The notes: generated by a model from the letters alone, not told the origin. A stretch of DNA of 64,000 nt from an uncultured Acidobacteriota bacterium (GCA_963809485.1 CAWEJX010000007.1:64001-128000), one strand, 5' to 3'. Positions 10,416 through 36,669 are shown, counted from the first letter of the stretch. A program made the numbers and translations.

Positions 10416-10446
10416 TCTCCGCTTCAGGATACCACTCCATTTTCAG

Positions 10447-16023: not shown

Positions 16024-16060
16024 GCTGCATGTCCGTCAACAGATTCCCGGCAGAGTTGGG

Positions 16061-16463
16061 AGTCAGGTATCTCCGGCAAAGCCGGAGGCTTGAAAGATTT
16101 GAACCGCTCAAAGCGGTTGGAGGAGTTACGCCGGTCTTGAACGCTGACTTACGCGGGCAAAAGCCGATGAGGCGCTTCCGAGCCCCGCAGGGGCCAGCGC
16201 TCCGCGCTGGACAGTTTTCTGCGGCGGTTCTGTGGCAAGCGCCGTGCGGCAAGGAGATGAAGAGTAGGAGAAACCGGGCGTTTGCCACAGTGCCGCCACA
16301 GAAAACTCCATCGGAAGCGCCTCATCGGCTCTTGCTCGCCGACCCTCGCCGAACAAATCGGCGTTTGTCAGCGCTTTTATCCGCGTTTCTCAGCGTTTCA
16401 AAATACGGAGCTGTCAAACTCTTTGAGTCCCCCGGCAGAGCCGGGGCTTTACCAATGTAATTA
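16061..16463. mobile_element. Non-autonomous IS200/IS605-end-like miniature element with a long internal hairpin
   Basis: Terminal hairpins ctccggc-aaa-gccggag and accgct-caa-agcggt at one end, ccccggc-aga-gccgggg at the other; internal inverted repeats 16161-16181/16311-16330 and about 16213-16243/16277-16307; partial copies at 7638, 8627 and 20876; no transposase ORF. Confidence 0.7.
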
Positions 16464-16564
16464 GCGATGCATTCAGGCGCCGGATGCTTGGCGCTGCTCT
16501 AGATTCCTTTGCCGCGGGATTGATGTAGCCGCCCGGTCGCTTTACTCCTATAATCGCCGTTTAT

Positions 16565-18628: not shown

Positions 18629-18817
18629 GATCAGCGATCGTCAGCGCCTTTTTCGGCACATGTCGGCGCCATTTTATCCCGGGATTTTCATACTTCCTGA
18701 ATCCCGGATCACCAGACGGAAGGAGCAGAAGACCTCAACCCCAGGGGTTCGAAAATGCCCCGGAAGCAAAGCGATCCCTGCCCCCTGTTAATCCATCCGG
18801 AACCGGACAGTCTCCCC

Positions 18818-20117: not shown

Positions 20118-20540
20118 ATGGCTACAAAAACCGTATTGCTTGTTGACGACGACCAGGATTTGATCGACATCTATAAAACCATTCTCGAACACGCGGGCTT
20201 TACGGTCCTTACCGCGGCCAACAGCGCGCAAGCCTTGCCTATTGCGACCTCAAAACCAATCGATGTTGCTGTCCTGGATGTAATGATGGATACACCCACC
20301 GAGGGATTTGAACTTGCACGCGCAATGCGGCAGAATGAGAAGACCAGTCGTATCCCGCTCCTGATGCTGACCTCTGTCAACACTCACAATGAGGAGATAG
20401 GCTCTTTCGTGCGCTTCTCGGACCGCGACCGCGATCATACATGGCTGCCAGTGGATCGTTTTCTGGACAAGCCTATCAAGCCTGAGGATCTCGTCGCCAT
20501 CGTCCGTACGCTTTCCGGCGCGTGGTCCTTTTCCCGCTGA
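20118..20540 (+). CDS. Stand-alone response regulator receiver (hydrogenase-island subfamily)
   Basis: LLVDDD, LDVMM, MLTS, WLPVDRFLDKP; GGAGG RBS. Confidence 0.9.
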   Translation: MATKTVLLVDDDQDLIDIYKTILEHAGFTVLTAANSAQALPIATSKPIDVAVLDVMMDTPTEGFELARAMRQNEKTSRIPLLMLTSVNTHNEEIGSFVRFSDRDRDHTWLPVDRFLDKPIKPEDLVAIVRTLSGAWSFSR

Positions 20541-20875
20541 TCCGGGCAGAGGCGATAAATAAACTCGCAATACTCAAATCCTCTGCGAGAGTCACGGAGT
20601 TTGATAGTTCCAGGATTATTGAACGCCGATATACGCTGAATAAACGCTGCTCAATAATACAATGGTTGGCGTTCAAGCGCCGATGAAACTATCGCATCAC
20701 AGCATATCCGCGATGGCTACCCGTTTCAGCCTACGGGCCTGAGTCAATCATTCTGAAACCTGAAATCCCTGATCCTCAAACCAGTCCATTAATATTGCCT
20801 GAGCCGCAGCGATGAGAAAGCTGTGAAAGAAGCAGAGTAATTAACCAGCCTCCCCCATAAACTATTGATATAAAT

Positions 20876-21000
20876 AGTCAGGCACCTCCGGCAAAGCCCA
20901 AGGCTTGAATGATTGGAACCGCCCAAAGCGGTTGGAGGCGTTACGATGGTCTTGAACGCTGACTTACGCGGCAGAGCCGTGGGTTTATCAATGGAATTAA
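20876..21000. mobile_element. Internally deleted copy of the IS200-like miniature element
   Basis: 20876-20970 matches 16061-16155, then joins directly to gcagagccg.gg.ttta.caatg.aatta, which matches 16435-16463. Confidence 0.7.
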
Positions 21001-21009
21001 ATTTTTTTA

Positions 21010-21038
21010 TTGACAAATACTGTGAAATATTTCACAAT
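21010..21038 (+). promoter_or_regulatory. Sigma70 promoter overlapped by a Rex operator
   Basis: TTGACA (21010-15), 17-bp spacer, CACAAT (21033-38); palindrome CTGTGAAATATTTCACAA (21020-37) matches the Rex box TTGTGAA-N4-TTCACAA, directly upstream of rex. Confidence 0.85.
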
Positions 21039-21068
21039 GCGTATTGTTTCACAAAGGAATGATTCAAA

Positions 21069-21719
21069 GTGAAGGCAGTGCCGCATCGAACGGTTGGCAG
21101 GCTCACGCTTTACTGGCGGACGCTTAGGGATATTGCCCGCGGGGACCAAAGCCATATCTATTCCCATTTTCTCGCCTCCCGATGCGGCGTGACTGCCGCC
21201 CAGGTGAGACGTGACCTCATGGTACTCGGCTATACGGGAACCCCTGCCCGGGGCTATGATGTCCGCAAACTCAAGGATCATATTGAAGCCTTCCTTTTCC
21301 CGGCTGAGGAGCAAAAGGCCGTGCTGGCAGGCGTCGGCAATATCGGCCGCGCCCTGCTGAAGTTTTTCAGCGCACGGCGTCCCGCACTTCGCATTGCAGC
21401 CTCTTTTGAAACCAATCCCGATAAATTCAACCGCGTGATCCAGGGCTGCCCTTGCCATTCCATCGAGAAGGCCGAGGGCATCATCCGTGATCTGGGCGCT
21501 ACGGTTGGGATTATGGCCGTTCCGGACGAGGAAGCCCAATTCGTGGCTGATGTATTTGTAGCCTCAGGCATACGCGGGATTCTGAACTTCGCCCGTGCTC
21601 CGCTGAGCGTCCCGCCCGGTGTTTATGTCGAGGATATTGATTTAGCCATGTCCATGGACAAGGTAGCGTATTTCGCGCGCCAGTCCCTGAAGTCGGACAG
21701 ATCAAAGGCAGTTCATTAA
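21069..21719 (+). CDS. rex: Redox-sensing transcriptional repressor Rex
   Basis: VPHRTVGRLTLY, AQVRRDL...G..ARGYDV, GVGNIGRAL, GIRGILNFA. Confidence 0.93.
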   Translation: MKAVPHRTVGRLTLYWRTLRDIARGDQSHIYSHFLASRCGVTAAQVRRDLMVLGYTGTPARGYDVRKLKDHIEAFLFPAEEQKAVLAGVGNIGRALLKFFSARRPALRIAASFETNPDKFNRVIQGCPCHSIEKAEGIIRDLGATVGIMAVPDEEAQFVADVFVASGIRGILNFARAPLSVPPGVYVEDIDLAMSMDKVAYFARQSLKSDRSKAVH

Positions 21720-21731
21720 GGAGATCGATCT

Positions 21732-22205
21732 ATGAACGACGTGGATACCATTCTGCAGAAGCACCCGCGAGCCGGGCGCGATGCACTCATTCCTATTCTT
21801 CAGGAAGTTCAGGAGCAGCAGGGATTCATTTCGCGCGAGGCGGTCGTCCGCATCAGTAAGCACCTTAACCTGCCTGCCAGCAAGCTTTACGGGGTCGCGA
21901 CCTTTTATAACCAGTTCCGTTTTCACCCCAAAGGCAAATACCACATCATGGTCTGCCGCGGCACGGCCTGCCATGTCAAAGGGTCCAACAGGGTGCTGGA
22001 AATGGCGCAAAAACTGCTGAAGCTGAAACCGGGCCAGACGTCCAGGGACCGCCTTTTCAGCCTCGAGGTTGTTGCTTGCATGGGAGCTTGCGGCTTGTCT
22101 CCGGTTATGAACCTCAACGGAGAGTTCTACGCCAAAGTCACCCCTAAAAAAATCGTCAAAATCATACAGGAATGTAGGGAAACGGAGTCCAAAAATGGGC
22201 ACTAA
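21732..22205 (+). CDS. hydC: [FeFe]-hydrogenase NuoE-like [2Fe-2S] subunit (HydC/HndA)
   Basis: LIPILQEVQ, GVATFYNQF, CRGTACHVKG, ACMGACGLSP. Confidence 0.92.
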   Translation: MNDVDTILQKHPRAGRDALIPILQEVQEQQGFISREAVVRISKHLNLPASKLYGVATFYNQFRFHPKGKYHIMVCRGTACHVKGSNRVLEMAQKLLKLKPGQTSRDRLFSLEVVACMGACGLSPVMNLNGEFYAKVTPKKIVKIIQECRETESKNGH

Positions 22206-25200
22206 TTCAGAATACTCAAAAATGGACAATTCCGGCAAATGCTGGATCGATTTCCACGAGGTTTCCGACAGCCTGCTGGCCGATCTCAAAGCGGAGCCTT
22301 TTTTAAGCGCCCGGGCAAAGGGAGCAAAGGTAACAGCATCGGTACTGGCCGGTTTGAGGCGCGAGTCCGTCGAGCGCCCCGTGATTTTTGTGGGTGCAGG
22401 CACCTGCGGGCTGGGTGCGGGAGCTGCCAAAACAATCGCGGCCGTTAAAGACTTCCTCGCGCAGCATCAGCAAACCGCCGATGTCGTCGAGGTCGGCTGC
22501 AACGGAATGTGCTCGGACGAGCCCATCGTCGACATCCAGGTCCCCGGCCGGGCTCGCGTCAGTTTCGGCACGATCACCGGAGACAAAGTGCCTGGACTGC
22601 TCGAAGCCGTACTCCTGCAGAACCGCATCCCCGCAGAACTGGTTCTCGGTCAGTACCGCTCGACCTGCGCAAAACCGTGGGAGGGTGTCCCATCTTTGGA
22701 TGAGCACCCCTTTCTTGCGCACCAGGTCCGCGTGGTTCTGGCAACCAGCGGCATTATCGATCCGGGAAATATCTCCGAATACATTGCCCGAGGCGGTTAC
22801 AGTTCCATTGCCAAGGTTCTGAGGACCATGACCCCGGAGCAGGTCTGCGACCAGATTGAAGCCAGCGGGCTCCGGGGACGCGGCGGCGGCGGATTCCCTA
22901 CCGGCAAAAAATGGAAGTTCGCCCGGGCCGCTGTCTCGGATCAGAAATACCTGATCTGCAACGCGGACGAGGGGGATCCCGGAGCTTTCATGGACCGCGC
23001 CGTCTGCGAAAGCGATCCGCACCGGCTGCTGGAGGGCATGCTGATCGCGGCCTATGCCATCGGCGCCACCAAGGCCTACATTTATATCCGCGCCGAATAT
23101 CCGCTGGCGATCAAGCGCCTCAACGAAGCCTTTGAACAGGCCGAAGCCTGCGGCCTGATCGGCTACAACATTCTCAACAGCGGCGTCGATCTCTCAATCA
23201 AACTCAAAATGGGGGCGGGCGCTTTTGTGTGCGGGGAGGAGACCGCGCTCATCCACTCGATCGAGGGCAAGCGCGGCATGCCGCGCCCCCGGCCTCCTTT
23301 CCCGGCCGTTCAGGGGCTTTTCGGCAGGCCGACGGTCATCAACAATGTTGAGACCCTGGCCAACCTGCCCCTGATCATGGATCACGGCCCGGACTGGTAT
23401 GCCGCGATGGGAACCCAAGGCAGCAAAGGAACGAAGGTATTCGCTCTTTCCGGAATGGTGCGGCGGACGGGTCTGGTTGAAATTCCGATGGGGACCTCCC
23501 TGCGCGAAGTCGTCTTCAATATCGCCGGCGGAATCCCCAATAACAAGAAATGCAAAGCCGTACAGATCGGCGGTCCTTCGGGCGGGTGCGTGCCTGAGGA
23601 ACACATGGACATACGCACGGACTACGAAGAGCTCAAGCAGTTCGGCACCATCATGGGATCCGGCGGTCTGGTTGTGGTCGACGAGTCCACGTGCATGGTC
23701 GATTTTGCCAAGTTTTTCATGGAATTCATCCAGAACGAAAGCTGCGGCAAATGCATCCCATGCCGCGAGGGTACGCGCCGGATGCTCGAGATCCTCGAAG
23801 CGGTGACCCGCCCGCGCCGTAAAGAGGACGACCTCGACGCTTTACTGCGCGTCCAGGGGATCATGCACCTGCAGAAGCTTGGGGAAACCATACGCGCCAC
23901 AAGCCTGTGCGGCCTGGGCCAGTCTGCCCCCAATCCTGTGCTGAGCACGCTCAAATGGTTCCGCGACGAGTACGAGGCTCACATATTCGAGCGCCGCTGC
24001 CCGTCCGGTTCCTGTAAAGAGCTGGTGGGAGCTCCCTGCCAGAACGGGTGCCCGATCGGGACCGAAGTCTGGCGTTATGTCGCCCATATTTCGCGGGGAG
24101 AGTACGACGATGCATACCGCGTCATCCGCGAAGCCAATCCGTTCCCGTCCGCCTGCGCCCGTGTATGCCATCATCCCTGCGAACAGGTTTGCCGCGCCGG
24201 CGCAACCGGAGGCGAGCCGATCGCGATCCGGACGCTCAAGCGCTTTGTGGTCGACACGGTGACTCCGCCCGATAAACTCGCGGTCCTGATGACTCGCTCG
24301 GATGCAGCCCGTATCGCCGTAATCGGCGCCGGGCCGGCGGGCCTGACGGCCGCCAATTCCCTTTCAGTCCTCGGCTATAAGGTCACCCTGCTCGAACGTG
24401 AGGCACAGGCCGGAGGGATGCTTTTCGCCGGGATCCCAGAATACAGGCTTCCCCGGGAAGGGATCCGGAAGGAAATCGCGGCTCTGATGAATCCCAACAT
24501 CGACGCGAAGTTCGGGCAAGCCCTGGGCCGCGACTTCACGATCGACAAGCTGTTAGAGGATGGCTATAAAGCCGTATTCATCGCCACAGGATCGCACCTC
24601 AGCAAGAAACTCGACCTGCCCGGGCGAAGACGTACCCGGGATCCTGCCCGGCATCGAGTTCCTCAAGGCATATAACCTGCACGGCAAATCTCTCGCGCGC
24701 GGGCACGTGGGGATCGTTGGCGGCGGCAACTCGGCCATGGATGCGGCCCGTGTGGCGATCCGCCAGCAGGGTGTGGAAAGCGTCACCGTATTTTACCGCC
24801 GCACGCGGGACAACATGCCCGCCTACAGGGAGGAGGTCGAAGCCGGGCTGGCTGAAGGCGTTATCCTGGAAACGCTGGTCACGCCCGTGGCCGTTCTCAG
24901 CAAGGACGGCCATCTGATCGGCATTCGCTCCCTTCGCAACGAACTGGGCGCCCGGGATTCCTCGGGCCGCCGCAGGCCCGTACCCATCAAAGGCTCCGAA
25001 TTCGACACAGCCCTGGACACGCTGATCGTGGCTATCAGCGAGGAACCCGAATCCGCCGGCCTGGAAGAGATCGGACGGACAAAATGGGGCACGATTGCGA
25101 TCAATTCCGAGTCGTTTATTACCGATCGGCCCGGCGTTTTCGCCGGCGGCGACGTGGTGACCGGCCCGAGCACCGTGATCGCCGCAATCGCCGTAGGCAA

Positions 25201-25468
25201 GCAGGCAGCAACGATGATCGACCGCTACGTTTCCGGCAAGCTTATGAAGGTACTGCCCAAGGTCAAGCTCCCTTCCGTCTATGTGGAACCGTATATGGAT
25301 GTGGACGAGGAAACCGGTGAAGTCTTCCGGCTGGAGGTGCCGTTACTCCCTGTGATAGAGAGGAAGAAATGTTTCGCCGAAGTGGAGTTGTGCCCCACCG
25401 AGCAGCAGGCCCTCGCAGAAGCGCGGCGATGCGCGCGCTGCGATCTGGACTTCACACAAGTGCAGTGA
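22195..25468 (+). CDS. hydB: NuoF-like flavoprotein HydB fused to a GltD/NfnB-like FAD/NAD(P) module; one extra base near 24622
   Basis: Thioredoxin-like N-domain (TCG...GCNGMC), GRGGGGFPTG, NADEGDPGAFMDR, GEETAL, GGPSGG, ESCGKCIPCREG; then APCQNGCP...CARVCHHPCEQVCR and IGAGPAG; after the frameshift PGEDVPGI...VGGGNSAMDAAR...YRRTR...FAGGDVVTGP...EARRCARCD. Confidence 0.88.
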
Positions 25469-25497
25469 CCGTATCGACACATGGATTGAGGTGACAC

Positions 25498-27213
25498 ATG
25501 ATAGAAATGCAAGTGGATGGCAGGATGATTGAAGCCCGGGAAGGCGAGACGATCCTCTCGGCCTTGAAACGGGAAGGAGTTCATGTCCCGACGCTGTGCA
25601 GCATGGAAGGGCTTCTGCCGAGCGGCGCATGCCGGATGTGCATAGTGGAAATGGAGGGGCCGGGCAACTTTGTCCCCGCATGCTCCTTTCCGGTCGCCCC
25701 GGGGATGAAGATTCTGACACGGTCGCCGAAAGTGCTGGACGCCCGCAGGACGATCGTGGAATTGCTTCTCAGCAATCACCCGGATGACTGCCTGTACTGC
25801 TCCCGGAGCGGGAAATGCGACCTGCAGAAGCTCTCCCAGGACATGGGCATCCGCGAGCGTCTGTACCGCGGCAAGCGGAATGAAAGGGAGAAGGACGTAT
25901 CCGGACCCATTATCCGGGATCCCGATAAATGCATCCTGTGCGGCCGCTGCGTACGCATTTGCGAAGAAGTCCAGGCCGTCGGCGCCATCGATTTTGTCGG
26001 CCGCGGCTCCAAGGCGTACATCGGCACCGCATTCGACCAGGGATTGAATATATCGACGTGCATCAACTGCGGGCAGTGCATCGTAGCTTGCCCGACAGGC
26101 GCCCTCAGCGAGCGCTCGTACCTGGAGCCCGTTATTGCGGCTCTTGCGGATCCCGAAAAGCTGGTCGTTGTCCAGCACGCGCCCTCCGTCTCCGTCTCTC
26201 TGGCGGAGGAATTCGGAATGGAGCCCGGCCAGGATGTCGACGGAAAAATGGTAGCCGCCCTCAGGCGGGTGGGATTCCACCGGGTTTTCGACACGTCTTT
26301 CGCCGCGGATCTGACCATCATGGAGGAAGCTTCCGAGCTGGCTCAACGGATTCAGCAGGGAGGCAGGCTGCCGATGTTTACCAGCTGTTCCCCGGGCTGG
26401 ATCAAGTTCGTAGAGCAGTTTTATCCCGAATTCATCCCCAACCTCTCAACCTGCAAAAGCCCTCAGCAAATGCTGGGAGCCGTCATAAAGAGCTATTTCG
26501 CCAGCCGCGAGTCGATCGACCCGTCCCGCATCATCAGCGTTTCCATCATGCCCTGCACTGCCAAAAAGTTTGAGAGCGGCAGGCCTGAAATGGCGCCGGA
26601 GCATATCCCGGATGTGGATTATGTGCTCACGACCCGCGAATTGGGACAGCTGCTGCGCATGTGCGGCGTTGATCTGCCGGCGGTTGAGCCGCAGACCGCC
26701 GACACGCCTTTCGGCGAGCGTTCCACCGCCGGCAAAATCTTCGGTGCCAGCGGCGGAGTTATGGAAGCCGCCATCCGCACGGCACATTTTCTCCTGACAG
26801 GCCAGGAGCTGGCCAAACTCGAAATGCAACCGATTCGGGGCCTGAAAGGAGCCAAGGAAATCCGCGTAAAAATCGGTGACCTGGAAGTCGGAGCCGCCGT
26901 CGCCAGCGGTCTGGGCAACGCCCGCAAACTGCTGGATCAGATCCGGGCGGGCCGGAAAGACCTGCACTTTGTCGAAATAATGACCTGTCCCGGCGGATGC
27001 ATCAACGGAGGAGGCCAGCCGATCGGCGCCGATCCCAATGCGGTCCGCGCCCGAATGCAGGCGCTGTACAAAATCGACCAGACCGAAAAAGTCAGGGTCA
27101 GCCACAGGAATCCCTATATTACCCGGCTTTACGAGGAGTTCCTGGGCAAGCCGCTGGGCGAGAAGAGCCATCACCTTCTTCATACTCACTACACCTCCAG
27201 GGAAGTCCTATAA
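25498..27213 (+). CDS. hydA: [FeFe]-hydrogenase catalytic subunit, group A3-type (HydA/HndD)
   Basis: [2Fe-2S] (PTLC...GACRMC), His-ligated cluster HPDDCLYC, two [4Fe-4S] motifs; H-cluster motifs TSCSPGW, MPCTAKKFE, EIMTCPGGCINGGGQP. Confidence 0.96.
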   Translation: MIEMQVDGRMIEAREGETILSALKREGVHVPTLCSMEGLLPSGACRMCIVEMEGPGNFVPACSFPVAPGMKILTRSPKVLDARRTIVELLLSNHPDDCLYCSRSGKCDLQKLSQDMGIRERLYRGKRNEREKDVSGPIIRDPDKCILCGRCVRICEEVQAVGAIDFVGRGSKAYIGTAFDQGLNISTCINCGQCIVACPTGALSERSYLEPVIAALADPEKLVVVQHAPSVSVSLAEEFGMEPGQDVDGKMVAALRRVGFHRVFDTSFAADLTIMEEASELAQRIQQGGRLPMFTSCSPGWIKFVEQFYPEFIPNLSTCKSPQQMLGAVIKSYFASRESIDPSRIISVSIMPCTAKKFESGRPEMAPEHIPDVDYVLTTRELGQLLRMCGVDLPAVEPQTADTPFGERSTAGKIFGASGGVMEAAIRTAHFLLTGQELAKLEMQPIRGLKGAKEIRVKIGDLEVGAAVASGLGNARKLLDQIRAGRKDLHFVEIMTCPGGCINGGGQPIGADPNAVRARMQALYKIDQTEKVRVSHRNPYITRLYEEFLGKPLGEKSHHLLHTHYTSREVL

Positions 27214-27701
27214 TGGATGCGGGCGGCTTCCGGGAGCCGCTTGTATCACCCCGGGGAGTGAAACAGGCAAGGGAGATTACGAGAGTGAAAAAGAAAATAC
27301 TGGCAGTGGACGACGATGTGGATCTTCTCGAACAGATGACGGCCGTGCTGGCTGCAGAGGGCTACGACGTGACCACGGCCGAAGGGCAGTCGGCCGGCGA
27401 GGAAGCCTTGCTCCGGATGAAGCCTGATCTTGCCATCCTGGATCTTATGATGGAAGAGAAGGATTCCGGCTTTGTGCTCAGCTACCAGATCAAAAAGCTT
27501 TACCCGGCTACTCCGGTAATTTTGCTGACTGCCGTCGCCGGGGCGACGGGATTAAGCTTCAGCACTCAGCATCCGGAAGAGCAGTCCTGGATCAAGGTGG
27601 ATAAAATTCTGGACAAACCCGTTCGGCCGGAGCAGCTCAAGTCCGAGGTTCGCCGCCTTCTCGGAGAAGCGCCGGAAGGCAAAGCGGGCGGTCACTCTTA
27701 A
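27213..27701 (+). CDS. Stand-alone response regulator receiver
   Basis: ILAVDDD, LDLMMEEKDSGF, LLTA, WIKVDKILDKP; start at ATG 27213 (TAATG coupling with hydA) or GTG 27285. Confidence 0.88.
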   Translation: MDAGGFREPLVSPRGVKQAREITRVKKKILAVDDDVDLLEQMTAVLAAEGYDVTTAEGQSAGEEALLRMKPDLAILDLMMEEKDSGFVLSYQIKKLYPATPVILLTAVAGATGLSFSTQHPEEQSWIKVDKILDKPVRPEQLKSEVRRLLGEAPEGKAGGHS

Positions 27702-27719
27702 GCGCTATATAGGACAACC

Positions 27720-29717
27720 ATGCAAGGTGCATGCTTCGTACAGACAATAAAAGAACGGTGCCGCGTCTGTTATACCTGCGTTCGGGAATGCCCGGCCAAA
27801 GCTATTGGAATTTCCGACGGCCAGGCCCGAGTCATCCCGGAACGCTGCATAGGCTGCGGCAACTGCGCGCGCGTCTGCAGCCAGGGCGCCAAAAAAGTCC
27901 TGGACGGCACCTGCGAGGTTACGCGCCTACTCCAGGAATCCGCAAAAGTGGCCGCCATCATCGCGCCGAGCTTTGCGGCCGAGTTTGAAGAGTGCGGGTA
28001 CGAAAAGGTCGTCGGGATGCTGCGCGCCTTGGGATTTGCCTACGTCCACGAAGTCGGTTTCGGCGCCGACCTGGTCGCCCGGCGCTACCGAGAGCTTCTG
28101 GAAAAAGACACCGAAGCCAATTACATTGCCACAACCTGCCCGGCCTTGGTCGGGTACGTGGAGCGCTATTATCCGGATCTGGTACCCCGGCTGTCACCGA
28201 TTGTATCCCCCATGGTTGCCATGGCGCGTGTCCTGAGGCGTCTCTACGGACCGGACATTCCGGTCGTTTTCATTGGTCCGTGCATCGCGAAAAAGGGAGA
28301 GGCCGCCAGCGAGGCGCTGGAAGGCGAGGTCGCAGCCGTGCTTACCTTCGCCGAACTCCGGCAGATGCTGTCGCAAGCCTCCATTGAACACGAAAAAGCC
28401 GAACCCGGGGACTTTGATCCCCCGTGGAGCGGCCCCGGCGGGCTGTTCCCGATCAGCCGCGGACTGCTCCAGGCTGCCGGCATCAAGGAGGACCTGATGG
28501 ACGGCCAGGTGATGGCAACCGATGGCCGCACCAACTTTGTCGAAGCGATCCAGGCCGTCGCTTCAAACAGCCTGGATGTGCGCCTGCTGGAGGTCCTGTG
28601 CTGCAACGGCTGCGTCATGGGTGCCGGCATGACCACCAGCTCAAATCTCTTTCAGCGCCGCAGCCTGGTGGGCCGCTATGTCCAGCAGCACTGGTCGGAA
28701 TTTCGTAAAGAACAATGGGAACACGACATGGCCAGGTATTCCGACGTGGACCTCGAGCGGAACTTCCGCGCCTACGACCAGCGCGTTGCCCAGCCTTCCC
28801 GCGCCGAAATCACCGCCATTCTTGCCCGGATGGGCAAATTGAAGCCGGAGGACGAACTGAACTGCGGCGCCTGCGGCTACGATTCCTGCGTACAGCACGC
28901 CATCGCAATCCATCGTCACCTGGCAGAGACGGAAATGTGCCTGCCCTACACAATCGAAAAGCTGCGCGACACCGTCAAAGAACTTGCGGTCTCGCACGAG
29001 CAGCTCGTCAGCACCCAGGAGGCCCTCATGCATTCGGAGCGGCTCGCGAGCATGGGGCAATTGGCCGCAGGCGTAGCCCACGAGGTCAACAATCCCCTCG
29101 GCATCGTCCTGATGCATTCCTACATGCTGCTCGAGCAGGCAAATAAATTCCCGGAATGGAAAGAGGACCTCGACATGATCGTCGAGCAGGCCGACCGGTG
29201 CAAAAAGATCGTCATGCGCCTTCTGCATTTCGCCCGGCAAAACAAGGCCGTCTTCCGGAATGTGGACCTCTACAAACTGGTTCAGCACACGGTCAAGACC
29301 TACCCGTTCCCCTCCAGGGTTTCGGCGCGCGTGGAGACGACCTCCGGCGATCCGCATGTCGACCTGGACCCGGACCAGATCAACCAGGTTTTCACGAACC
29401 TCTTCAGCAACGCCTGCGATGCGATGCCGGACGGCGGCGAGCTCATAGTTGCCGTCGGAGGCAACACGGACCAGGTTTGGTTTTCAGTCAAAGATACGGG
29501 TACGGGTATTTCCAAGGAAAGCCTTGGAAAGATCTTTGAACCATTCTTCACCACAAAACAGATAGGCAAAGGGACCGGCCTTGGACTTGCGGTCAGCTAC
29601 GGCATTGTCAAGATGCACCGCGGCCAGATTTCCGCCGTGTCCAACAAAGATCCAGCTGCAGGGCCGACAGGAACCACTTTCACGGTCAAGCTTCCCCGGA
29701 AAGCTCCTGACGAATAG
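27720..29717 (+). CDS. hydS: Sensory [FeFe] hydrogenase (group C, HydS-like) fused to a histidine kinase
   Basis: Two [4Fe-4S] ([23 protein letters not shown]), divergent H-cluster motifs ATTCPA / GPCIAKKGE / [11 protein letters not shown], FeS domain [10 protein letters not shown]...CLPY, then HEVNNPL, NLFSNA, DTGTG, FFTTK, GTGLGL. Confidence 0.9.
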
Positions 29718-29732
29718 AACGGACATACATAA

Positions 29733-30134
29733 ATGACAGAGGAGAGCGTTATGGCAAAAATACTGCTTGTAGACGACGACCAGGATCTGATCGAAATGAA
29801 TAAGACCATACTGGCGCAGCGCGGCCACGTGGTGACCGTGGCATACTCTGCTGCGGAAGCCCTCAAAACCATCCAGACCGTCGCGCCTGACCTGGCGGTG
29901 CTGGACGTGATGATGGAAGACAAAACAGCCGGGTTCGACCTCGCCCGGAAGCTGCATGCGCAATTCCCCAAGATGCCGATGATCATGCTGACCGGGATTC
30001 GCAAGGAGATGGATCTCGGTTTCGGTTTCGAACCCGACGAGACCTGGCTGCCGGTCAGCAAGTTCATGGAAAAGCCGGTGAATCCGCGGATTCTCGCGGA
30101 GGAAGCAGAGAAGCTTTTGGCCGCAAACAGATAA
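29733..30134 (+). CDS. Stand-alone response regulator receiver
   Basis: LLVDDD, LDVMMEDKTAGF, MLTG, WLPVSKFMEKP; alternative start ATG 29751. Confidence 0.9.
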   Translation: MTEESVMAKILLVDDDQDLIEMNKTILAQRGHVVTVAYSAAEALKTIQTVAPDLAVLDVMMEDKTAGFDLARKLHAQFPKMPMIMLTGIRKEMDLGFGFEPDETWLPVSKFMEKPVNPRILAEEAEKLLAANR

Positions 30135-30339
30135 CCCAGTGGCTGTCGCCCCCTGAAACCCCTTCGCGCGCAGCGCTTGATGGAATTCGAAACCATCACA
30201 CCGCGCCCGGGGATTTGGAAACCGGGATTCATGTCTGCACCTCGGTTCGAAGCTGGAAACTCTGAACTGGGAACCGAATTTCTTAAACTATTCAGATATG
30301 AGATTTTATTAGTAAGCATATAAAGAGCGGAAGGTCGAC

Positions 30340-31485
30340 GTGGAAACACTAAACGTCATCGTGGTGGATGACGAATACGGCATGCGGCGGGGCGCCGAGC
30401 GGGTATTGAAGGACCTCACTCTCACACTGCCCGATATCAACGGCGAGGTCAAATTCGCTGTCCGCACGGCTGCGAGCGGAAAGGAACTGGAGGAGAAGCT
30501 GGCGTCGGCTCCTGCGGACATACTCCTCCTGGATCATATCCTGCCCGATACTACGGGGCTGGATATTCTCGACCGTCTCGGGCACGAGTCGCTGGATCTA
30601 TTGACCATCATGATCACGGCCTACGCTTCGCTGGAAACCGCCGTGACTGCCACCCGCCGCGGCGCCTATGATTTCCTGGCCAAGCCGTTCACGCCCGAAG
30701 AACTGCGCGGCGCCGTACGCAAGGCCGCCCGCCACCTTATTCTGCAGCGCCAGGCCCGCCGGCTTGCCGAAGAGAAGCGGCAGGTCCGGTTCCAATTCAT
30801 ATCCGTGCTCGCCCACGAGATGAAAGCCCCCATCGCGGCAATTGAAGGGTACCTTCAAATGATCCGCGAGCGCGCGATGGGCGACAGCCTGGTCGCCTAC
30901 GACCGAATGGTGGACCGGTCCCTGATCCGTATCGACGGCATGCGCAAGCTGATCGGGGATCTTCTGGACCTGACCGCCATCGAGTCCGGCCAGAGGCAGC
31001 GCACCCTCGTGACGCTGAACCTCGCCGAGGCCGCCCGCCAGGCGGTCGAAAACATGAAACCGGAGGCCGCCCGCCGCGACATACAGGTTGATATGAGCGT
31101 TCCGGATGGTCTGAACCTTGAGGCGGACAAGACGGAGATCGATATGATCTTCAATAATCTTGTTTCCAACGCCATCAAATATAACCGGGATCACGGGCGC
31201 GTTAAGGTAACCATAAGCCAGTCCGGGGATGAAATCCGCGTTCAGGTCAAGGACACAGGAATCGGCATGACCCCGGAGGAATGCAAGCGCCTGTTCAAGG
31301 ATTTCTCACGTATCAAAAACGATAAGACGCGCAACATCCTCGGCAGCGGCCTGGGCCTGTCCACCCTCAAGAAACTGGTCACGCTGTATAGCGGGGATAT
31401 TTCCGTCGAAAGCAAGCCCGATGTCGGCAGCACCTTCACGGTCCTGCTCCACAAAATCCAAAGGCCGGGAAATGAACAGGGATGA
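30340..31485 (+). CDS. Receiver-histidine kinase hybrid
   Basis: VVDDE...LLDHILPD...ITAY...LAKPF receiver, then AHEMKAP, NLVSNAIKY, DTGIG, GSGLGL. Confidence 0.9.
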   Translation: METLNVIVVDDEYGMRRGAERVLKDLTLTLPDINGEVKFAVRTAASGKELEEKLASAPADILLLDHILPDTTGLDILDRLGHESLDLLTIMITAYASLETAVTATRRGAYDFLAKPFTPEELRGAVRKAARHLILQRQARRLAEEKRQVRFQFISVLAHEMKAPIAAIEGYLQMIRERAMGDSLVAYDRMVDRSLIRIDGMRKLIGDLLDLTAIESGQRQRTLVTLNLAEAARQAVENMKPEAARRDIQVDMSVPDGLNLEADKTEIDMIFNNLVSNAIKYNRDHGRVKVTISQSGDEIRVQVKDTGIGMTPEECKRLFKDFSRIKNDKTRNILGSGLGLSTLKKLVTLYSGDISVESKPDVGSTFTVLLHKIQRPGNEQG

Positions 31486-32578
31486 AATCCTCGCATGGCT
31501 GCTCGAAGAGAATCCGGACCGCCTGGAGACGCTCTGGAGCCTTGCCGACGGCGTTCGCCGTGACCATGTCGGGGATTCCGTTCACATCCGCGGCCTGATT
31601 GAGTTCTCAAACTATTGCAGGAGCAACTGCCATTACTGCGGGATGCGCAGCGGGCGCAGATCCCTCGCCCGGTACCGGATGACGCAGGATGAAATCCTTG
31701 ATTCAGCCCGGGAGGCCATGGCGCGGGGATACGGCACCGTCGTAATGCAATCGGGCGAAGATCTCCATCTTGAGGTCGAGTGGCTGGCAGGCGTTATCAA
31801 AAAGATCAAGCGGGAGACCCCGCTGGCCGTCACCCTGAGCCTGGGAGAGCGGGCACTGGAGGAACTTGCGCGATTGCGGGAATCCGGCGCGGATCGCTAT
31901 TACCTTCGTTTTGAAACTTCGGACAGGCTCCTGTGGAAAAGGATTCATACTTCAGACACCAGAGGTGTGCTCCATCGCCTGGATTTGCTTCCCCGTATAA
32001 AAGAGCTCGGCTATGAAACCGGAAGCGGAATCATGGTAGGTATCCCCGGGCAGACCTGGGACTCGCTGGCGGATGACATCGAATGGTTCCGGCGGCTGGA
32101 CCTCGACATGATCGGCTGCGGCCCTTTCGTGCCCCACCCGGAAACGCCCTCGGGCCGGGAGTACGATGATCATGTCCTTTCCAATCCGTCTCCGGCCCAG
32201 GTGCTCAACACCAATCTGGTTACGTGCAAAGTCATGGCCCTCACCCGGCTTGTCTGCCCGGATGTGAACATACCCAGCACCACTGCGCTGGCCACGCTCG
32301 ACCAGGAGGACGGGTACCGGCTGGGCCTGCAGCGCGGCGCCAATGTCCTGATGGTCAACCTCACGCCGATCAAATACCGCCGCCTTTATGAGATTTATCC
32401 CGAGAAGGCCGGCATCGGTGAATTGCCCCAACCGCAGCGTGAGAGGGTCGACTCTATCCTGGCCGGGCTCGGACGCACAGCCGGAGAAGGAACCGGGGCA
32501 TCAAGGAATTTCGAAGCGCGCCGTCCGGCGATCGCTTCACTGCAAAGAGGTGATTTATGTCAGCATTGCCGAAAATAG
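31472..32578 (+). CDS. hydE: [FeFe]-hydrogenase maturase HydE (radical SAM)
   Basis: RGLIEFSNYCRSNCHYC, VMQSGED, TLSLGE, RFETSD, GSGIMVGIPGQ, IPSTTAL, GANVLM, YEIYP. Confidence 0.93.
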   Translation: MNRDEILAWLLEENPDRLETLWSLADGVRRDHVGDSVHIRGLIEFSNYCRSNCHYCGMRSGRRSLARYRMTQDEILDSAREAMARGYGTVVMQSGEDLHLEVEWLAGVIKKIKRETPLAVTLSLGERALEELARLRESGADRYYLRFETSDRLLWKRIHTSDTRGVLHRLDLLPRIKELGYETGSGIMVGIPGQTWDSLADDIEWFRRLDLDMIGCGPFVPHPETPSGREYDDHVLSNPSPAQVLNTNLVTCKVMALTRLVCPDVNIPSTTALATLDQEDGYRLGLQRGANVLMVNLTPIKYRRLYEIYPEKAGIGELPQPQRERVDSILAGLGRTAGEGTGASRNFEARRPAIASLQRGDLCQHCRK

Positions 32579-33981
32579 AAATTAGCAGGGGCGCTGTCGA
32601 TTTCATCGACGACGCGTATTTGATGAGGCTGCTCCATGGCCCGGAGCCTGAGCGGGAGGAAGTTCAGGGGACGGTCGCAAAGAGCCTTGCCAAGCAGCCG
32701 CTCACGGTCGAGGAAACGGCCACTTTGCTCAGGGTCAAGGACCCGGACCTGCTGGAAAACATTTTTCACACTGCCCGGACACTGAAAGAAACTGTCTACG
32801 GTAACCGGATCGTTCTTTTTGCGCCTCTCTACGTCGGCAATGACTGCGTCAACGACTGCGCTTACTGCGGCTTCCAAAGCACGAATAAACTTGCAGTGCG
32901 CCGCACCCTGACGCCCGAGGAATTGCGCGAACAGGTCCTGAAACTGGAAGCTGCCGGGCAAAAAAGGCTGATCCTGGTTTTCGGAGAACACCCGGGCTAT
33001 AACGCGAATTTCATCGCCGAGCAGGTTCGCACCGTATACAACACGCGCAGTGGGCACGGAGAAATCCGCAGAGTCAATATCAACGCCGCGCCCATGGATC
33101 ACGAAGGCTACCGAATCATCAAATCCTCGGGGATCGGCACCTACCAGATCTTTCAGGAAACCTACCATCACGAGACCTATGCCCGGGTGCACTCCCCGCG
33201 CACGCGCAAGGGCGATTACCTGTACCGCCTCGACGGGCTGAGCCGGGCCCTCGAGTCCGGCTGCGACGATGTCGGGATCGGCGTCCTCTTCGGCCTGTAC
33301 GACTGGCGCTTCGAAGTGCTGGGCCTTGTAGCGCACGCGATCCACCTTCGCGAACGATACGGGGTCGGACCTCATACCATCAGCTTCCCGCGCCTGCGGC
33401 CGGCCTGCGGGGTCGACTTCCCCGGCCTGGGCTCCGTCAGCGACAGCGACTTCAAGCGCGTGATTGCAACCCTGCGGCTGGCTGTGCCTTACACCGGGCT
33501 CATTCTCACGGCACGCGAAAACGCTTCCCTGAGACGCGAGCTTATGGGACTCGGCGTTTCCCAAATCGACGCCGGCAGCCGGATAGAGATCGGCGGGTAC
33601 ACCGAGCCGGAAGATAAGCAGATTACGGACCGCGAGCAATTCGAGCTCGGGGACACGCGGTCGCTGGACAAGGTTATGGGCGAGCTTCTGGAAGACGGTT
33701 ATCTGCCCAGTTTCTGCACAGCCTGCTACCGGCTCGGACGCACGGGCGAGCATTTCATGGAATTCGCGATTCCCGGGTTCATCAAGCGGTTCTGCACGCC
33801 CAACGCAATGACAACCCTCACGGAGTATCTCGTGGACTACGCTTCGCCCGAGACCCGGCGCGCCGGCGAGCAGCAAATCGAAAAGGAACTGGCAAAGCTT
33901 CCCGAGGGTCCTCAAAAAGCCGAACTCGAAAAGCGACTTAAGAAAATCAGAGAGACGGACGAGCGCGACCTCTATTTTTAG
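32557..33981 (+). CDS. hydG: [FeFe]-hydrogenase maturase HydG (radical SAM)
   Basis: FAPLYVGNDCVNDCAYC, IGTYQIFQETY, GPHTISFPR, PSFCTACYR...FCTPNA C-terminal cluster. Confidence 0.96.
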   Translation: MSALPKIEISRGAVDFIDDAYLMRLLHGPEPEREEVQGTVAKSLAKQPLTVEETATLLRVKDPDLLENIFHTARTLKETVYGNRIVLFAPLYVGNDCVNDCAYCGFQSTNKLAVRRTLTPEELREQVLKLEAAGQKRLILVFGEHPGYNANFIAEQVRTVYNTRSGHGEIRRVNINAAPMDHEGYRIIKSSGIGTYQIFQETYHHETYARVHSPRTRKGDYLYRLDGLSRALESGCDDVGIGVLFGLYDWRFEVLGLVAHAIHLRERYGVGPHTISFPRLRPACGVDFPGLGSVSDSDFKRVIATLRLAVPYTGLILTARENASLRRELMGLGVSQIDAGSRIEIGGYTEPEDKQITDREQFELGDTRSLDKVMGELLEDGYLPSFCTACYRLGRTGEHFMEFAIPGFIKRFCTPNAMTTLTEYLVDYASPETRRAGEQQIEKELAKLPEGPQKAELEKRLKKIRETDERDLYF

Positions 33982-34000
33982 CCGTGGGCCGGAAAGGATT

Positions 34001-34034
34001 TTGCACGTTACACGTTACACGTTGCACGTTCCAC
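34001..34034. repeat. Heptamer tandem repeat (CACGTTR) between hydG and aspA
   Basis: ttgcacgttacacgttacacgttgcacgttccac. Confidence 0.7.
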
Positions 34035-34042
34035 AATTAAAT

Positions 34043-35455
34043 ATGAGCCCCTATCGGACAGAACATGATTTGCTGGGCATGCGGGAAGTGCCGGCGGATG
34101 CCCTGCACGGCATTTACACCGAAAGGGCCATCGAGAACTTTCCGCTGGCTCTGCGGCCGGTAAATCCTGCCCTGATCCATGCCTATGGAGCGGTGAAGCT
34201 CGCCTGCGCCCAGGTTAACCACGAACTGGGCTGGTGGGATGAAGACAAAGCCCGCGCCATTCAGACTGCGTGCCTGGAAATGATCGAGGGTCGGCTGGAT
34301 TCCAGCATCGTCGTCGACGCCCTTCAGGGCGGGGCGGGCACTTCCACCAACATGAACGTCAACGAAGTCCTGGCCAACCGGGCCCTGCAGATCCTCGGAA
34401 AGCCGCCGGGTGAGTACCAGACCATCAGCCCGATCGAAGATATCAACCTTCACCAGTCCACGAACGACACCTATCCGACTGCCCTCAAAGTGGCGGCCAT
34501 TCAACTGCTCCGGCTGCTCGAACGCGATGTGGTGAGCCTGCTCGAGGAATTCCAGCGCAAGGAACAGCAGTTCGCCCGCGTCGTCAAGGTTGGCCGGACC
34601 CAGCTGCAGGATGCCGTGCCGATCACCCTGGGACGTGAAATGGGTGCCTACGCGGAAGCATTTGCGCGCGACCGCTGGCGCATTTACAAGTGTGAAGAGC
34701 GGTTGCGGCTCGTCAACCTGGGCGGCACGGCCATCGGGACGGGGCTCTCGGCGCCGCGGCAATATATCTTCCGCGTCGTTGACCGGCTGAGGGAAATCAC
34801 GCGCCTGGGACTGGCACGGGCGGAAAACCTTGTCGAATGCACGCAGAACGCGGACGTTTTTGTCGAGGTCAGCGGCATTCTGAAAGCCTGCGCAGCGAAC
34901 CTGATCAAGGTTGCCACGGATCTTCGCCTCCTGTCCTCAGGGCCGGACGCGGGATTCGGGGAGATACGCCTGCCGCCGCGTCAGGCCGGCTCTTCCATCA
35001 TGCCCGGCAAAATCAATCCCGTCATCCCCGAAGCGGTAACCCAGGCGGCAATCGCCGTGATGGCCAACGACCAGGCTATCGCTCAGGCTTGCGCAATGGG
35101 AAACCTCGAGCTGAATCCCTTTCTCCCGCTGGTTGCGGACGCCCTGCTGGGAAACCTGGATCTGCTGCGAAACGCCTGCAGGATTTTCCGCGAGCACTGC
35201 GTGGCCGGCATCGAGGCCAATGAATCCCTTTGCCGCACGAGAGTCGAGGGAGCAACCGCCACATTAACCGCGATGGTCGAGCTTCTCGGCTATGAAAAAG
35301 CCCAGGAGATCGCCGCCCGGGCCCGAGCCCTGGGAAAACCTGTTCGTGAAGTTGTCCTGGAGAGCGGCCTGCTGTCGCCCGAACAATTCGACGCGCTTAT
35401 CTCGCCGGAAAGCCTCGCACGCCTCGGATCACCGCCACGAGAGGAAAAACCATGA
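34043..35455 (+). CDS. aspA: Aspartate ammonia-lyase within the hydrogenase maturation operon
   Basis: RTEHDLLG, QGGAGTSTNMNVNEV, QSTNDTYPT, GRTQLQDA, GSSIMPGKINPVIPE; ATGA overlap with hydF. Confidence 0.9.
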   Translation: MSPYRTEHDLLGMREVPADALHGIYTERAIENFPLALRPVNPALIHAYGAVKLACAQVNHELGWWDEDKARAIQTACLEMIEGRLDSSIVVDALQGGAGTSTNMNVNEVLANRALQILGKPPGEYQTISPIEDINLHQSTNDTYPTALKVAAIQLLRLLERDVVSLLEEFQRKEQQFARVVKVGRTQLQDAVPITLGREMGAYAEAFARDRWRIYKCEERLRLVNLGGTAIGTGLSAPRQYIFRVVDRLREITRLGLARAENLVECTQNADVFVEVSGILKACAANLIKVATDLRLLSSGPDAGFGEIRLPPRQAGSSIMPGKINPVIPEAVTQAAIAVMANDQAIAQACAMGNLELNPFLPLVADALLGNLDLLRNACRIFREHCVAGIEANESLCRTRVEGATATLTAMVELLGYEKAQEIAARARALGKPVREVVLESGLLSPEQFDALISPESLARLGSPPREEKP

Positions 35456-36669
35456 AAGAAACACCCAAGGGGATGCGGCTGCACATCGGACTATTCGGAA
35501 GGCGCAACGTCGGCAAATCATCTCTTTTGAATGCCCTGACCCACCAGCAGGTTTCGATCGTGTCCGATGTACCGGGAACCACGACGGACCCGGTGGAGAA
35601 GCCGATGGAGCTTCTGCCTCTGGGGCCGGTGCTCTTCATCGACACGGCGGGCATCGACGACATCGGAGCCCTGGGGGAAATGCGCGCGGAGCGGACGCGA
35701 CAGGTTTTTGAGCGGACAGACCTGGGGATACTGGTTGCCGAATCGGATCGATGGGGGGAATTCGAGGAGGGCATTCTCGGCGAACTGGCGAAACGCCAGA
35801 CGCCCGTTATTGTCGTCATCAACAAATCCGATATTGCCGCGCCCGGCGTCGAAGTTGTGCAGGATCTGAAATCACGCAAGCTCGCCATCGTCGAAACAGT
35901 CGCCAGCGAGGGCAAGGGCATTCCGGGCCTGCGGGAGGCCCTGATTCGATCGGCTCCGGAGGCGTTTATGGATGCCCCCCCGATATTGGGGGACCTGATT
36001 TCGCCCGGCGAACTGGTTGTCCTGGTGGTTCCCATCGACCTGGAGGCTCCGCGCGGGAGGCTTATACTGCCGCAGGTCCAGTCGATACGCGACGTCCTGG
36101 ATCACGATTCCTACTGCATGGTGGTCAAGGAGCGCGAACTGCGCGATGCGCTGGGCCGGCTCAACCGGCCTCCGGCTCTGGTCGTGACGGATTCGCAGGC
36201 ATTCCTGAGAGTGGCGGGAGACGTGCCGTCCCAGGTTCCGCTGACGTCTTTCTCGATTTTGTTCGCCCGCCTGAAGGGCGATCTGAATGAATTCGTGCGC
36301 GGGGTTGAAGCGATCGACCGGCTGAAAACCGGAAACCGTGTGTTGGTGCTCGAGGCCTGCACGCATCACCCCATCGGCGAGGACATCGGCAGGGTGAAAA
36401 TTCCCCGCTGGATCCGGCAGTACACGGGAGTGGAACTCGAATTCGTTCACCGCCAGGGGCACGATTTCCCCGAGGACCTCAGCTCTTACGGACTTGTCGT
36501 TCACTGCGGCTCCTGCATGCTGAACAGGCGGGAAGTGATTTCCCGCGTTCTGCGCTGCCAGGAGGCCGGCGTGCCCATCACGAATTACGGGGTAGCCATC
36601 ACCTACTCGCTGGGCGTTCTGGACCGGGCCCTTTCGCCCTTCCCCGGATTCCGGAAGCCCTCCCTGTAA
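35452..36669 (+). CDS. hydF: [FeFe]-hydrogenase maturation GTPase HydF
   Basis: GRRNVGKSS, GTTTDPV, DTAG, NKSD, RLILPQVQ, TDSQAF, EACTHH...HCGSC. Confidence 0.96.
   Translation: MKETPKGMRLHIGLFGRRNVGKSSLLNALTHQQVSIVSDVPGTTTDPVEKPMELLPLGPVLFIDTAGIDDIGALGEMRAERTRQVFERTDLGILVAESDRWGEFEEGILGELAKRQTPVIVVINKSDIAAPGVEVVQDLKSRKLAIVETVASEGKGIPGLREALIRSAPEAFMDAPPILGDLISPGELVVLVVPIDLEAPRGRLILPQVQSIRDVLDHDSYCMVVKERELRDALGRLNRPPALVVTDSQAFLRVAGDVPSQVPLTSFSILFARLKGDLNEFVRGVEAIDRLKTGNRVLVLEACTHHPIGEDIGRVKIPRWIRQYTGVELEFVHRQGHDFPEDLSSYGLVVHCGSCMLNRREVISRVLRCQEAGVPITNYGVAITYSLGVLDRALSPFPGFRKPSL

Follow-up and report, generated by a model that had tools for sequence, protein, structure and literature searches.

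The gene cluster described here raises the question of how an H2 sensor of the [FeFe] hydrogenase type might pass on its signal when bare receivers and a second kinase are encoded beside it. The cluster occupies the plus strand at positions 20118-36669 (open reading frame (ORF) listing and Pfam scans) of a 64,000-nucleotide stretch of DNA from an uncultured Acidobacteriota bacterium (GCA_963809485.1 CAWEJX010000007.1:64001-128000; hereafter the window), whose 6.0-Mb genome in 21 contigs is 95.7% complete and 7.3% contaminated. Its gene order is receiver, Rex, HydC, HydB-GltD, HydA, receiver, HydS-kinase, receiver, receiver-kinase, HydE, HydG, aspartase-like lyase and HydF. An initial annotation had read this region as an H2-sensing phosphorelay with no DNA-binding output, and all elements that it named were found by Pfam at or near the places assigned to them. 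In our view, the cluster is an operon under Rex repression that encodes an NADH-linked HydABC [FeFe] hydrogenase together with the maturases, and a signalling module of two kinases and three receivers is embedded in it; we put the probability of this explanation, taken as a whole, at about one half.

The HydS-kinase consists of two [4Fe-4S] ferredoxin motifs, an H-cluster domain, a C-terminal four-cysteine FeS domain (PF04060, residues 380-409, 28 bits at a cut-off of 23), a helical linker, a HisKA domain with His454 and a HATPase_c domain. The fusion of a sensory [FeFe] domain to HisKA/HATPase and its first H-cluster motif, ATTCPA (residues 137-142), had both been pointed out before and are confirmed by Pfam and the sequence, respectively. 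ATTCPA is the commonest first motif among the HydS-like frames of related loci (18/61, with the pattern unmatched in 12), and its single cysteine aligns in BLAST with the cysteine in the TSCSP motif of the window's HydA, all four H-cluster cysteines having a cysteine counterpart in that protein. An alignment of 13 such fusions (61-80% identity) has C140, C188, C295, C298 and H454 in every sequence. In the alignments T139, G186 and L293 occupy the places of CpI C299, M353 and M497, which are given as the three positions changed in sensory enzymes in the available text of PMC10055695. As judged from these residues, HydS-kinase is shown to be a HydS-type H-cluster protein that has the cluster cysteines and lacks the proton-relay cysteine and both flanking methionines.

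A C-terminal four-cysteine cluster behind the H-domain is likewise described for the sensory hydrogenase TamHydS in the accessible part of PMC13104023. The PAS domain of the strict group C (M2f) HydS was not found by Pfam, and HisKA comes next, at residues 445-507. On the kinase side, the H-box His454 is accompanied by N, G1, F and G2 boxes that can be read in the sequence, as expected of a histidine kinase. An AlphaFold2 model has a mean predicted local distance difference test (pLDDT) score of 70 with confident H- and ATPase domains, and residues 400-468, comprising the linker and the region of dimerization and histidine phosphotransfer (DHp), fall below 50; a helical link from the H-domain side into DHp is hence weakly predicted.

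The three single-domain receivers (REC1, REC2 and REC3, in gene order) share the motifs D(V/L)MM(D/E)....GF and W(L/I)(P/K)V..(F/I)(L/M)(D/E)KP, and between beta-4 and beta-5 they are about 6-13 residues longer than two other receivers, the one at 9933-10415 and that of the receiver-kinase. These shared motifs and the longer segment had been noticed initially and hold up in the alignment, the receiver at 9933-10415 having neither; the receiver domain of the receiver-kinase is also devoid of both. All four receiver domains retain the acidic pocket, the acceptor Asp, the Thr/Ser and the Lys. In an alignment of 70 receivers D9, D10, D52 and K108 are invariant (70/70) and MM is present in at least 90%. 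The AlphaFold2 model of REC3 computed from this alignment (mean pLDDT 89.9) shows strands 1-5 and helices 1, 2, 3 and 5, with residues 82-103 forming a loop at pLDDT of about 56-61 in place of helix alpha-4 and the remaining model at 92 or above. As this stretch is modelled without a helix, the alpha4-beta5-alpha5 surface, the usual output face, is predicted to be rebuilt, and throughout the subfamily a loop with a conserved aromatic residue is predicted to stand where helix alpha-4 would be. This loop keeps its TG..F and aromatic-PVD motifs across phyla. A Foldseek search against the PDB returned ordinary CheY-like domains only (template modelling (TM) scores of 0.77-0.84) and no solved relative that lacks alpha-4.

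That these proteins form a receiver subfamily of their own, as first proposed, is supported by a profile that gives 113-173 bits for four receivers of the source genome and at most 81 bits for all others. A tree of 167 receiver sequences divides the subfamily into two clades. The first, with the motif W(I/V)(K/R)AD, includes REC2 and is almost confined to neighbours of HydS-kinases, and the second, with LPVD, includes REC1, REC3 and a copy on contig C21 of the same genome and is found before or behind [FeFe] and [NiFe] structural genes. A profile search of 1.84 billion representative sequences gave 3058 proteins at E <=1e-30 that cannot be read as subfamily members, the best 150 rows being almost all multi-receiver proteins with summed scores.

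The association of sensor, receiver and receiver-kinase is widespread. A pattern scan with one genome per species yielded at least 600 matching stretches, of which the best 80 loci were kept, and 54 of these encode a full HydS-kinase. By their record titles they belong to Acidobacteriota, Planctomycetota, Myxococcota, Bacteroidales, Ignavibacteria, Thermoleophilia/Actinomycetota and Verrucomicrobiota as well as Elusimicrobiota, Hydrogenedentota, Fibrobacteraceae, Bdellovibrionales, Spirochaetota, Smithellaceae and Clostridia, and their commonest gene order is Rex-HydC-HydB-HydA-HydS/kinase-receiver-receiver/kinase-(HydE, HydG, HydF). Among the 47 HydS-kinase loci with at least 2.5 kb of downstream sequence, an adjacent subfamily receiver is found in 39, a receiver-kinase within 3 kb in 43 and both in 38. 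Where the upstream sequence extends to 6.5 kb or more (40 loci), HydA is found in 34 and Rex in 23 cases. In an informal contrast set of about 20 loci that match the kinase half only, one receiver (L078) belongs to the subfamily. With these counts from the 47 loci, the grouping of HydS-kinase, receiver and receiver-kinase is not a matter of chance. Where HydB carries a GltD-like extension, as in the window, the receiver precedes the sensor kinase, whereas elsewhere it follows it. Since five HydS-kinase loci (L016, L023, L038, L039, L049) retain the receiver-kinase without an adjacent bare receiver, the gene content suggests that the step from sensor to receiver-kinase is the core of the module.

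The receivers themselves have a wider range. Searching 401 Acidobacteriota genomes with the subfamily profile (E <=1e-27) gave 130 receiver matches in 71 genomes of 45 genera, 37 of the 130 lying within 12 kb of a HydS-like gene. Long-frame HydS-kinases are present in 27 Acidobacteriota genomes, 24 of which also hold a receiver, and 47 receiver-bearing genomes have no long-frame HydS-kinase. For the remaining matches 7 kb were taken on each side, giving 91 loci, and a catalytic hydrogenase gene was counted if it encoded an [FeFe] H-domain of at least 100 bits or an [NiFe] large subunit with an N- or C-terminal cysteine motif. Such a gene lies within 7 kb in 50 of the 91 loci (13 [FeFe], 37 [NiFe]); according to Pfam, the latter include large and small subunits of group-3-like and group-4-like enzymes together with HypA, HypB and HycI. 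In 301 Planctomycetota genomes 97 receiver matches were obtained (46 genomes, 86 loci), and after the six lowest-ranked loci had been dropped, 49 of 80 loci contained a catalytic gene (33 [FeFe], 16 [NiFe]). Within the source genome all four subfamily receivers have a catalytic hydrogenase gene within 7 kb, compared with 2 of 37 other receiver domains, and only 2.0% of the genome lies this close to one. A link of the subfamily to hydrogenase loci was thus found in both phyla and in the source genome. Its proposed dedication to group C sensors was not borne out, given that most Acidobacteriota members occur without HydS and instead adjoin [FeFe] HydABC genes with a GAF kinase or [NiFe] hydrogenases of groups 3 and 4.

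The sensor kinases beside subfamily receivers vary (HydS, GAF, 6TM-GAF, sCache-HAMP or a bare transmitter of 240 amino acids), and a receiver-HisKA-HATPase protein of about 370 amino acids recurs next to them. [FeFe] clusters devoid of HydS (L093-L101, L146, L147, L150) show the order receiver-HydC-HydB-HydA-kinase-HydG, and in the two that were scanned (L094, L098) a GAF kinase of about 435 amino acids holds the slot of the HydS-kinase. In another locus (L151) a subfamily receiver is immediately followed, according to Pfam, by genes of the molybdopterin (FdhA) type and the NuoE/NuoF type, and L152, L153, L157, L163 and L166 exhibit the same HydA-like/HydB-like pattern in a marker scan only; the receiver link may hence extend to formate-dependent enzymes.

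The fourth subfamily receiver of the source genome follows a second receiver-kinase, which is 35% identical to the copy in the window. This pair directly precedes a group-3b-like [NiFe] operon (L089, G000:C21:10001-30000, positions 8944-13228) with the families Fer4_22, NAD_binding_1/DHODB and Oxidored_q6, and no sensor kinase is located between the pair and the operon. As no sensor kinase immediately adjoins it, one HydS-kinase may feed both hydrogenase loci.

The module most likely works as follows. H2 at the H-cluster would modulate the autophosphorylation of His454, and the phosphoryl group would be passed both to the adjacent REC2 and to the second kinase, at its receiver domain; the activity of that kinase towards the LPVD-type receivers REC3 and REC1 would thereby be set. 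Because the receivers carry no output domain, they would act through protein binding, with REC1 and REC3 engaging a further protein via the remodelled alpha4-beta5-alpha5 face. In parallel, Rex would gate transcription by reporting the NADH/NAD+ ratio.

A number of points speak against our explanation. The order of the transfers is one that we infer from gene order only. No Hpt family was detected by Pfam in any gene between 20118 and 36669, and the system is hence not a classical His-Asp-His-Asp relay, which takes an Hpt or Spo0B-like protein between two receivers; the term phosphorelay, under which the locus had been filed, therefore fits only loosely. In the group D sensor TamHydS the C-terminal cluster is not reduced by H2 (PMC13104023, as far as its text was available). 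The second hydrogenase locus could have its own sensor, a Cache-HAMP kinase (14097-16664) that the contig encodes about 900 bp to 3.5 kb past the gene for the [NiFe] small subunit. In the census, the 7 kb on either side hold no catalytic hydrogenase gene in 41 of the 91 Acidobacteriota and 31 of the 80 Planctomycetota loci, and this reach is short on fragmented bins. These loci are concentrated among the lowest-scoring matches. The 41 negative Acidobacteriota loci include several contigs of 3-5 kb that end inside a HydC-HydB-HydA row, and also L151 and about five loci with its marker pattern; other negative loci contain HdrBC-like genes or HypF, and the rest look unrelated. Moreover, receivers of HydS loci served to build the profile, and matches at orthologous HydS loci are thus to be expected, and counts from related genomes are not independent. 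Finally, the HydB-GltD gene of the window is split, which represents either an assembly error or recent inactivation or decay.

Turning to alternative explanations, the bare receivers could form a sink or feedback branch that drains phosphoryl groups, with a distant DNA-binding or sigma-54-type regulator, phosphorylated by the receiver-kinase, as the actual output. Single-domain receivers such as Sinorhizobium CheY1 and Caulobacter LovR can indeed serve as phosphate sinks. A generic, kinase-directed role of this kind would fit the very different sensor kinases that the receivers accompany and their frequent position as the first gene of a hydrogenase operon, and in the five loci without an adjacent bare receiver the signal must exit by another route. 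However, a conserved remodelled surface would be superfluous for a pure sink, yet the TG..F and aromatic-PVD motifs have been kept across phyla, and no candidate for the distant regulator was found. We therefore consider a sink possible, if on the unlikely side.

If the receivers do bind a partner, the spread of the family over unrelated hydrogenase types, most of them without Rex, weighs against the initial suggestion that this might be HydABC or Rex specifically, at least for the family as a whole. A more general and still tentative idea, which we regard as unlikely to hold in full, is that the alpha-4-less receivers constitute a pan-hydrogenase adaptor family whose phosphorylated copy binds the hydrogenase, the maturation machinery or an mRNA/ribosome complex directly. 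In that case each [FeFe] or [NiFe] operon would have its own copy, with the upstream kinase sensing H2, redox state or a metabolite, and hydrogenase output would be switched after transcription by a control layer that is so far undescribed and common to several phyla.

With respect to the input, it is doubtful that the HydS domain reports the cellular redox state, by way of reduced ferredoxin or NADH and the Fe-S clusters, rather than H2. Pfam predicts three accessory clusters in addition to the H-cluster site, GAF or Cache sensors occupy the same slot on other kinases, and for group C1 proteins of Hydrogenedentota, whose H-cluster motifs are hardly detectable, the available text of PMC11406978 leaves H2 sensing open. 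On the other hand, each of the 13 aligned fusions has all four H-cluster cysteines, the HydE, HydG and HydF proteins of the cluster could mature an H-cluster, and the relatives TmHydS and TamHydS bind an H-cluster and react with H2, as stated in the accessible parts of PMC10055695 and PMC13104023.

At the level of transcription, the 64 kb contain a single perfect match to TGTGAA-N4-TTCACA, namely the inverted repeat TGTGAAATATTTCACA (21021-21036). It overlaps the sigma-70-like promoter TTGACA-17-CACAAT and is followed by a weaker second half-site at 21038-21053. We take this repeat to be a Rex operator. A box like that of the window is located just upstream of rex in 14 related loci, and in a fifteenth (L045) it lies inside the rex match. 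With Rex encoded and a putative operator at the promoter, the cluster qualifies as a candidate member of the Rex regulon. A sigma-54 promoter upstream of rex was not seen by eye, no formal scan being made. None of the 134 unlabelled plus-strand ORFs near HydS-kinase loci (51 downstream and 83 upstream; 128 minus-strand ORFs fell outside the scan) combines a receiver with a DNA-binding domain. The postulated absence of a local transcription factor thus applies to DNA-binding response regulators, none of which was found among these ORFs, but not to Rex, which is present with its putative operator on the promoter.

In a locus of a Gaiellales bin (L059, 4581-5744) rex and an LPVD-type receiver form a single open frame of 388 amino acids, either a natural fusion or the result of a lost stop codon; the related loci L060 and L061 have two genes instead, 70-80 bp apart. 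Docking of the receivers on Rex, which would couple the H2 signal to Rex-dependent repression, is very improbable, for although a subfamily receiver stands beside rex in the window, L013, L043, L060 and L061 and shares a frame with it in L059, Rex occurs in only 2 of the 91 Acidobacteriota receiver loci (L114, L137; marker scan), the fused frame stems from one metagenome bin and perhaps from a lost stop codon, and in the window REC1 is situated 528 bp upstream of rex with the operon promoter in between. A complex prediction for the Rex dimer with REC1 scored 0.00 relative to a mark of 0.32, which counts neither for nor against binding.

The features of the cluster are compiled in Table 1. The starts first assigned to REC1 (20118) and the receiver-kinase (30340) were kept, whereas those of REC2 (27213) and REC3 (29733) were moved. 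For REC2 the GTG at 27285 is more likely than the ATG at 27213, as judged from AGGGAG 8 bases upstream and a length of 138 amino acids as in its relatives; REC3 probably starts at the ATG at 29751 because its homologues are 127 amino acids long. The name HydE presumably applies to the first radical SAM gene, given its conserved position beside HydG and HydF. Neither the receivers nor either of the two kinases reached the cut-off of any NCBIfam model, and an Rfam scan of the window gave no match.

Table 1. Genes and regulatory sites of the hydrogenase cluster, with positions in the window and supporting evidence.
Feature	Position	Strand	Evidence
REC1, single-domain receiver, LPVD clade	20118..20540	+	Response_reg 65.1 bits; subfamily profile 133.5 bits; tree
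Sigma-70-like promoter TTGACA-17-CACAAT (21010-21038) and Rex-type repeats	21010..21053	+	Pattern match
Rex, NADH/NAD+-sensing repressor	21069..21719	+	PF06971 and PF02629; NCBIfam NF003995 190.5 bits (cut-off 126)
HydC, NuoE-like [2Fe-2S] subunit	21732..22205	+	PF01257 172.6 bits
HydB (NuoF-like flavoprotein) fused to GltD/NfnB-like FAD-NAD(P) module	22195..25468	+	Pfam; tblastn against L009
HydA, catalytic [FeFe] hydrogenase subunit	25498..27213	+	PF02906 318.6 bits and PF02256
REC2, single-domain receiver, HydS-adjoining clade	27285..27701	+	Response_reg 55.4 bits (frame 26997-27701); subfamily profile 173.2 bits
HydS-kinase	27720..29717	+	Fer4 x2, Fe_hyd_lg_C 174.2 bits, FeS PF04060 28 bits, HisKA 44 bits, HATPase_c 85 bits
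REC3, single-domain receiver, LPVD clade	29751..30134 (frame opens 29733)	+	Response_reg 65 bits; subfamily profile 152.1 bits
Receiver-kinase: ordinary receiver with helix alpha-4, then HisKA and HATPase_c	30340..31485	+	Pfam; HisKA 44 bits, HATPase_c 97.9 bits
HydE-like radical SAM maturase (inner ATG 31472)	31421..32578	+	PF04055; conserved position beside HydG/HydF
HydG-like radical SAM maturase	32557..33981	+	PF04055 and PF06968 BATS; conserved position
Aspartate ammonia-lyase-like gene between hydG and hydF	34001..35455	+	PF00206 and PF10415; NF008909 631.1 bits (cut-off 510)
HydF maturase GTPase	35452..36669	+	PF18133, PF18128, PF01926

HydA also matches the NCBIfam model NF040763 (NADH-dependent [FeFe] hydrogenase, group A6) with 823.7 bits at a cut-off of 765. 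Its first H-cluster motif reads FTSCSPGW and thus contains one Cys; among the HydA frames of HydS-kinase loci (n=57) TSCSP is found in 43, TSCCP in 8, SSCSP in 3 and SSCCP in 1, with no match in 2. The HydB-GltD sequence is read in two overlapping frames, 22195-24675 and 24560-25468. Compared by tblastn with L009 (77% identical), where the protein is one frame of 1118 amino acids, it shifts by one base at about 24623-24624 in a C/G run; in several further loci, too, the protein is a single frame of about this length. The aspartate ammonia-lyase-like gene was found again in related loci. On its upstream side the window encodes the ordinary receiver mentioned above (9933-10415, minus strand), a HEAT-repeat protein of 946 amino acids, a PAS-GAF histidine kinase (14128-16023) and a HAMP-SpoIIE (PP2C) phosphatase (16565-18628), and in a Verrucomicrobiota locus (L035) STAS and Cache-HAMP-SpoIIE genes are likewise located upstream of the Rex-Hyd cluster. 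Positions 1-7512 hold tetrahydromethanopterin-linked C1 genes, including Mpt_N (2906-3847) and the pterin-binding DUF6513 (5687-7006).

In the HoxBC-HoxJ-HoxA system of Ralstonia/Cupriavidus (HupUV-HupT-HupR), two different proteins act as sensor and kinase, and the signal ends at an NtrC-type regulator that binds DNA. It resembles the present module in that a low-activity hydrogenase serves as H2 sensor for a kinase controlling hydrogenase genes; it differs from it in that the window has an unrelated metal site, sensor and kinase in one chain, and bare receivers together with a second kinase. Multi-kinase networks with single-domain receivers are represented by Myxococcus RedCDEF, Rhodospirillum centenum CheA3-CheS3, Caulobacter DivJ/PleC-DivK and LovK-LovR. 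As in these networks, there are two kinases, one of them gated by its N-terminal receiver, bare receivers that may act as intermediates, sinks or allosteric effectors, and no DNA-binding output in the operon; unlike in them, the input is hydrogenase-like and the receivers, predicted to lack alpha-4, are tied to hydrogenase operons.

According to the text available to us, HydDB places the [NiFe] regulatory hydrogenase, an H2 sensor for a histidine kinase, in group 2b and defines an [FeFe] subtype C1 as 'histidine kinase-linked (putative)' (PMC5037454). The catalogued sensory [FeFe] hydrogenases comprise group C (M2f, Thermotoga maritima TmHydS) and group D (M2e, TamHydS) in the accessible parts of PMC5037454, PMC10055695 and PMC13104023. 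With both groups the window's protein shares the cluster cysteines, the replaced proton-relay cysteine and two methionines, the N-terminal ferredoxin and C-terminal four-cysteine clusters and the location of its gene beside a bifurcating-type HydABC and Rex; unlike group C HydS, it has no PAS domain, and the C-terminal cluster domain runs directly into HisKA/HATPase. Kinase-bearing forms are placed under both C1 and C3 in PMC11406978, where the 'BfuT' sensors of Hydrogenedentota adjoin group A3 enzymes and where 'response regulator' does not occur in the text that was available. For Elusimicrobia the accessible part of a preprint (bioRxiv 10.1101/765248) mentions a group C enzyme, encoded near Rex, that is joined to the ATPase domain of a kinase.

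The source genome encodes a second HydS-like protein, which is 439 amino acids long and has no kinase (Fer4, Fe_hyd_lg_C, FeS; L090, G000:C1:322001-342000, 5903-19501). Downstream of it are genes for a DRTGG protein, a HATPase_c-only protein, NuoE-, NuoF- and NuoG-like proteins, MvhD and [NiFe] small and large subunits, upstream of it are HdrBC-like genes, and a Cache-HAMP kinase with a sigma-54 activator lies 2-3 kb further (L091). This arrangement resembles the group D setting of TamHydS.

The literature on catalogued kinase fusions, in the portions available, mentions the fusion itself but neither a partner receiver nor a receiver-kinase, and in open-access PubMed Central and bioRxiv, supplements aside, we found no account of such partners or of a hydrogenase-linked receiver family. 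The claim of an undescribed system can therefore be upheld, within this open-access literature, for the receiver and receiver-kinase part, but not for the sensor-kinase fusion, which is noted in the accessible text of PMC5037454, PMC11406978 and bioRxiv 10.1101/765248. The sensor class is known; new are the wiring and the hydrogenase-linked receiver type, which together make up a variant of two-component signalling. The present analysis contributes the census from the receiver side, the division into two clades, the prediction that alpha-4 is lost and the finding of a second pair in the source genome.

How putative [FeFe] H2 sensors hand on their signal is an unsolved question, for which the locus suggests likely first acceptors, and a kinase-fused sensor offers a direct read-out, namely its autophosphorylation in the presence and absence of H2. 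The module occurs in bins that are labelled Elusimicrobium minutum and Kuenenia stuttgartiensis, and sensors of this kind have been linked to Ignavibacterium album and Caldithrix abyssi in the available part of a preprint, so that cultured strains may permit genetics. As the receiver type is found beside both [FeFe] and [NiFe] hydrogenases in two phyla, it points to a common and unstudied element in the control of hydrogen metabolism in anoxic soils and sediments.

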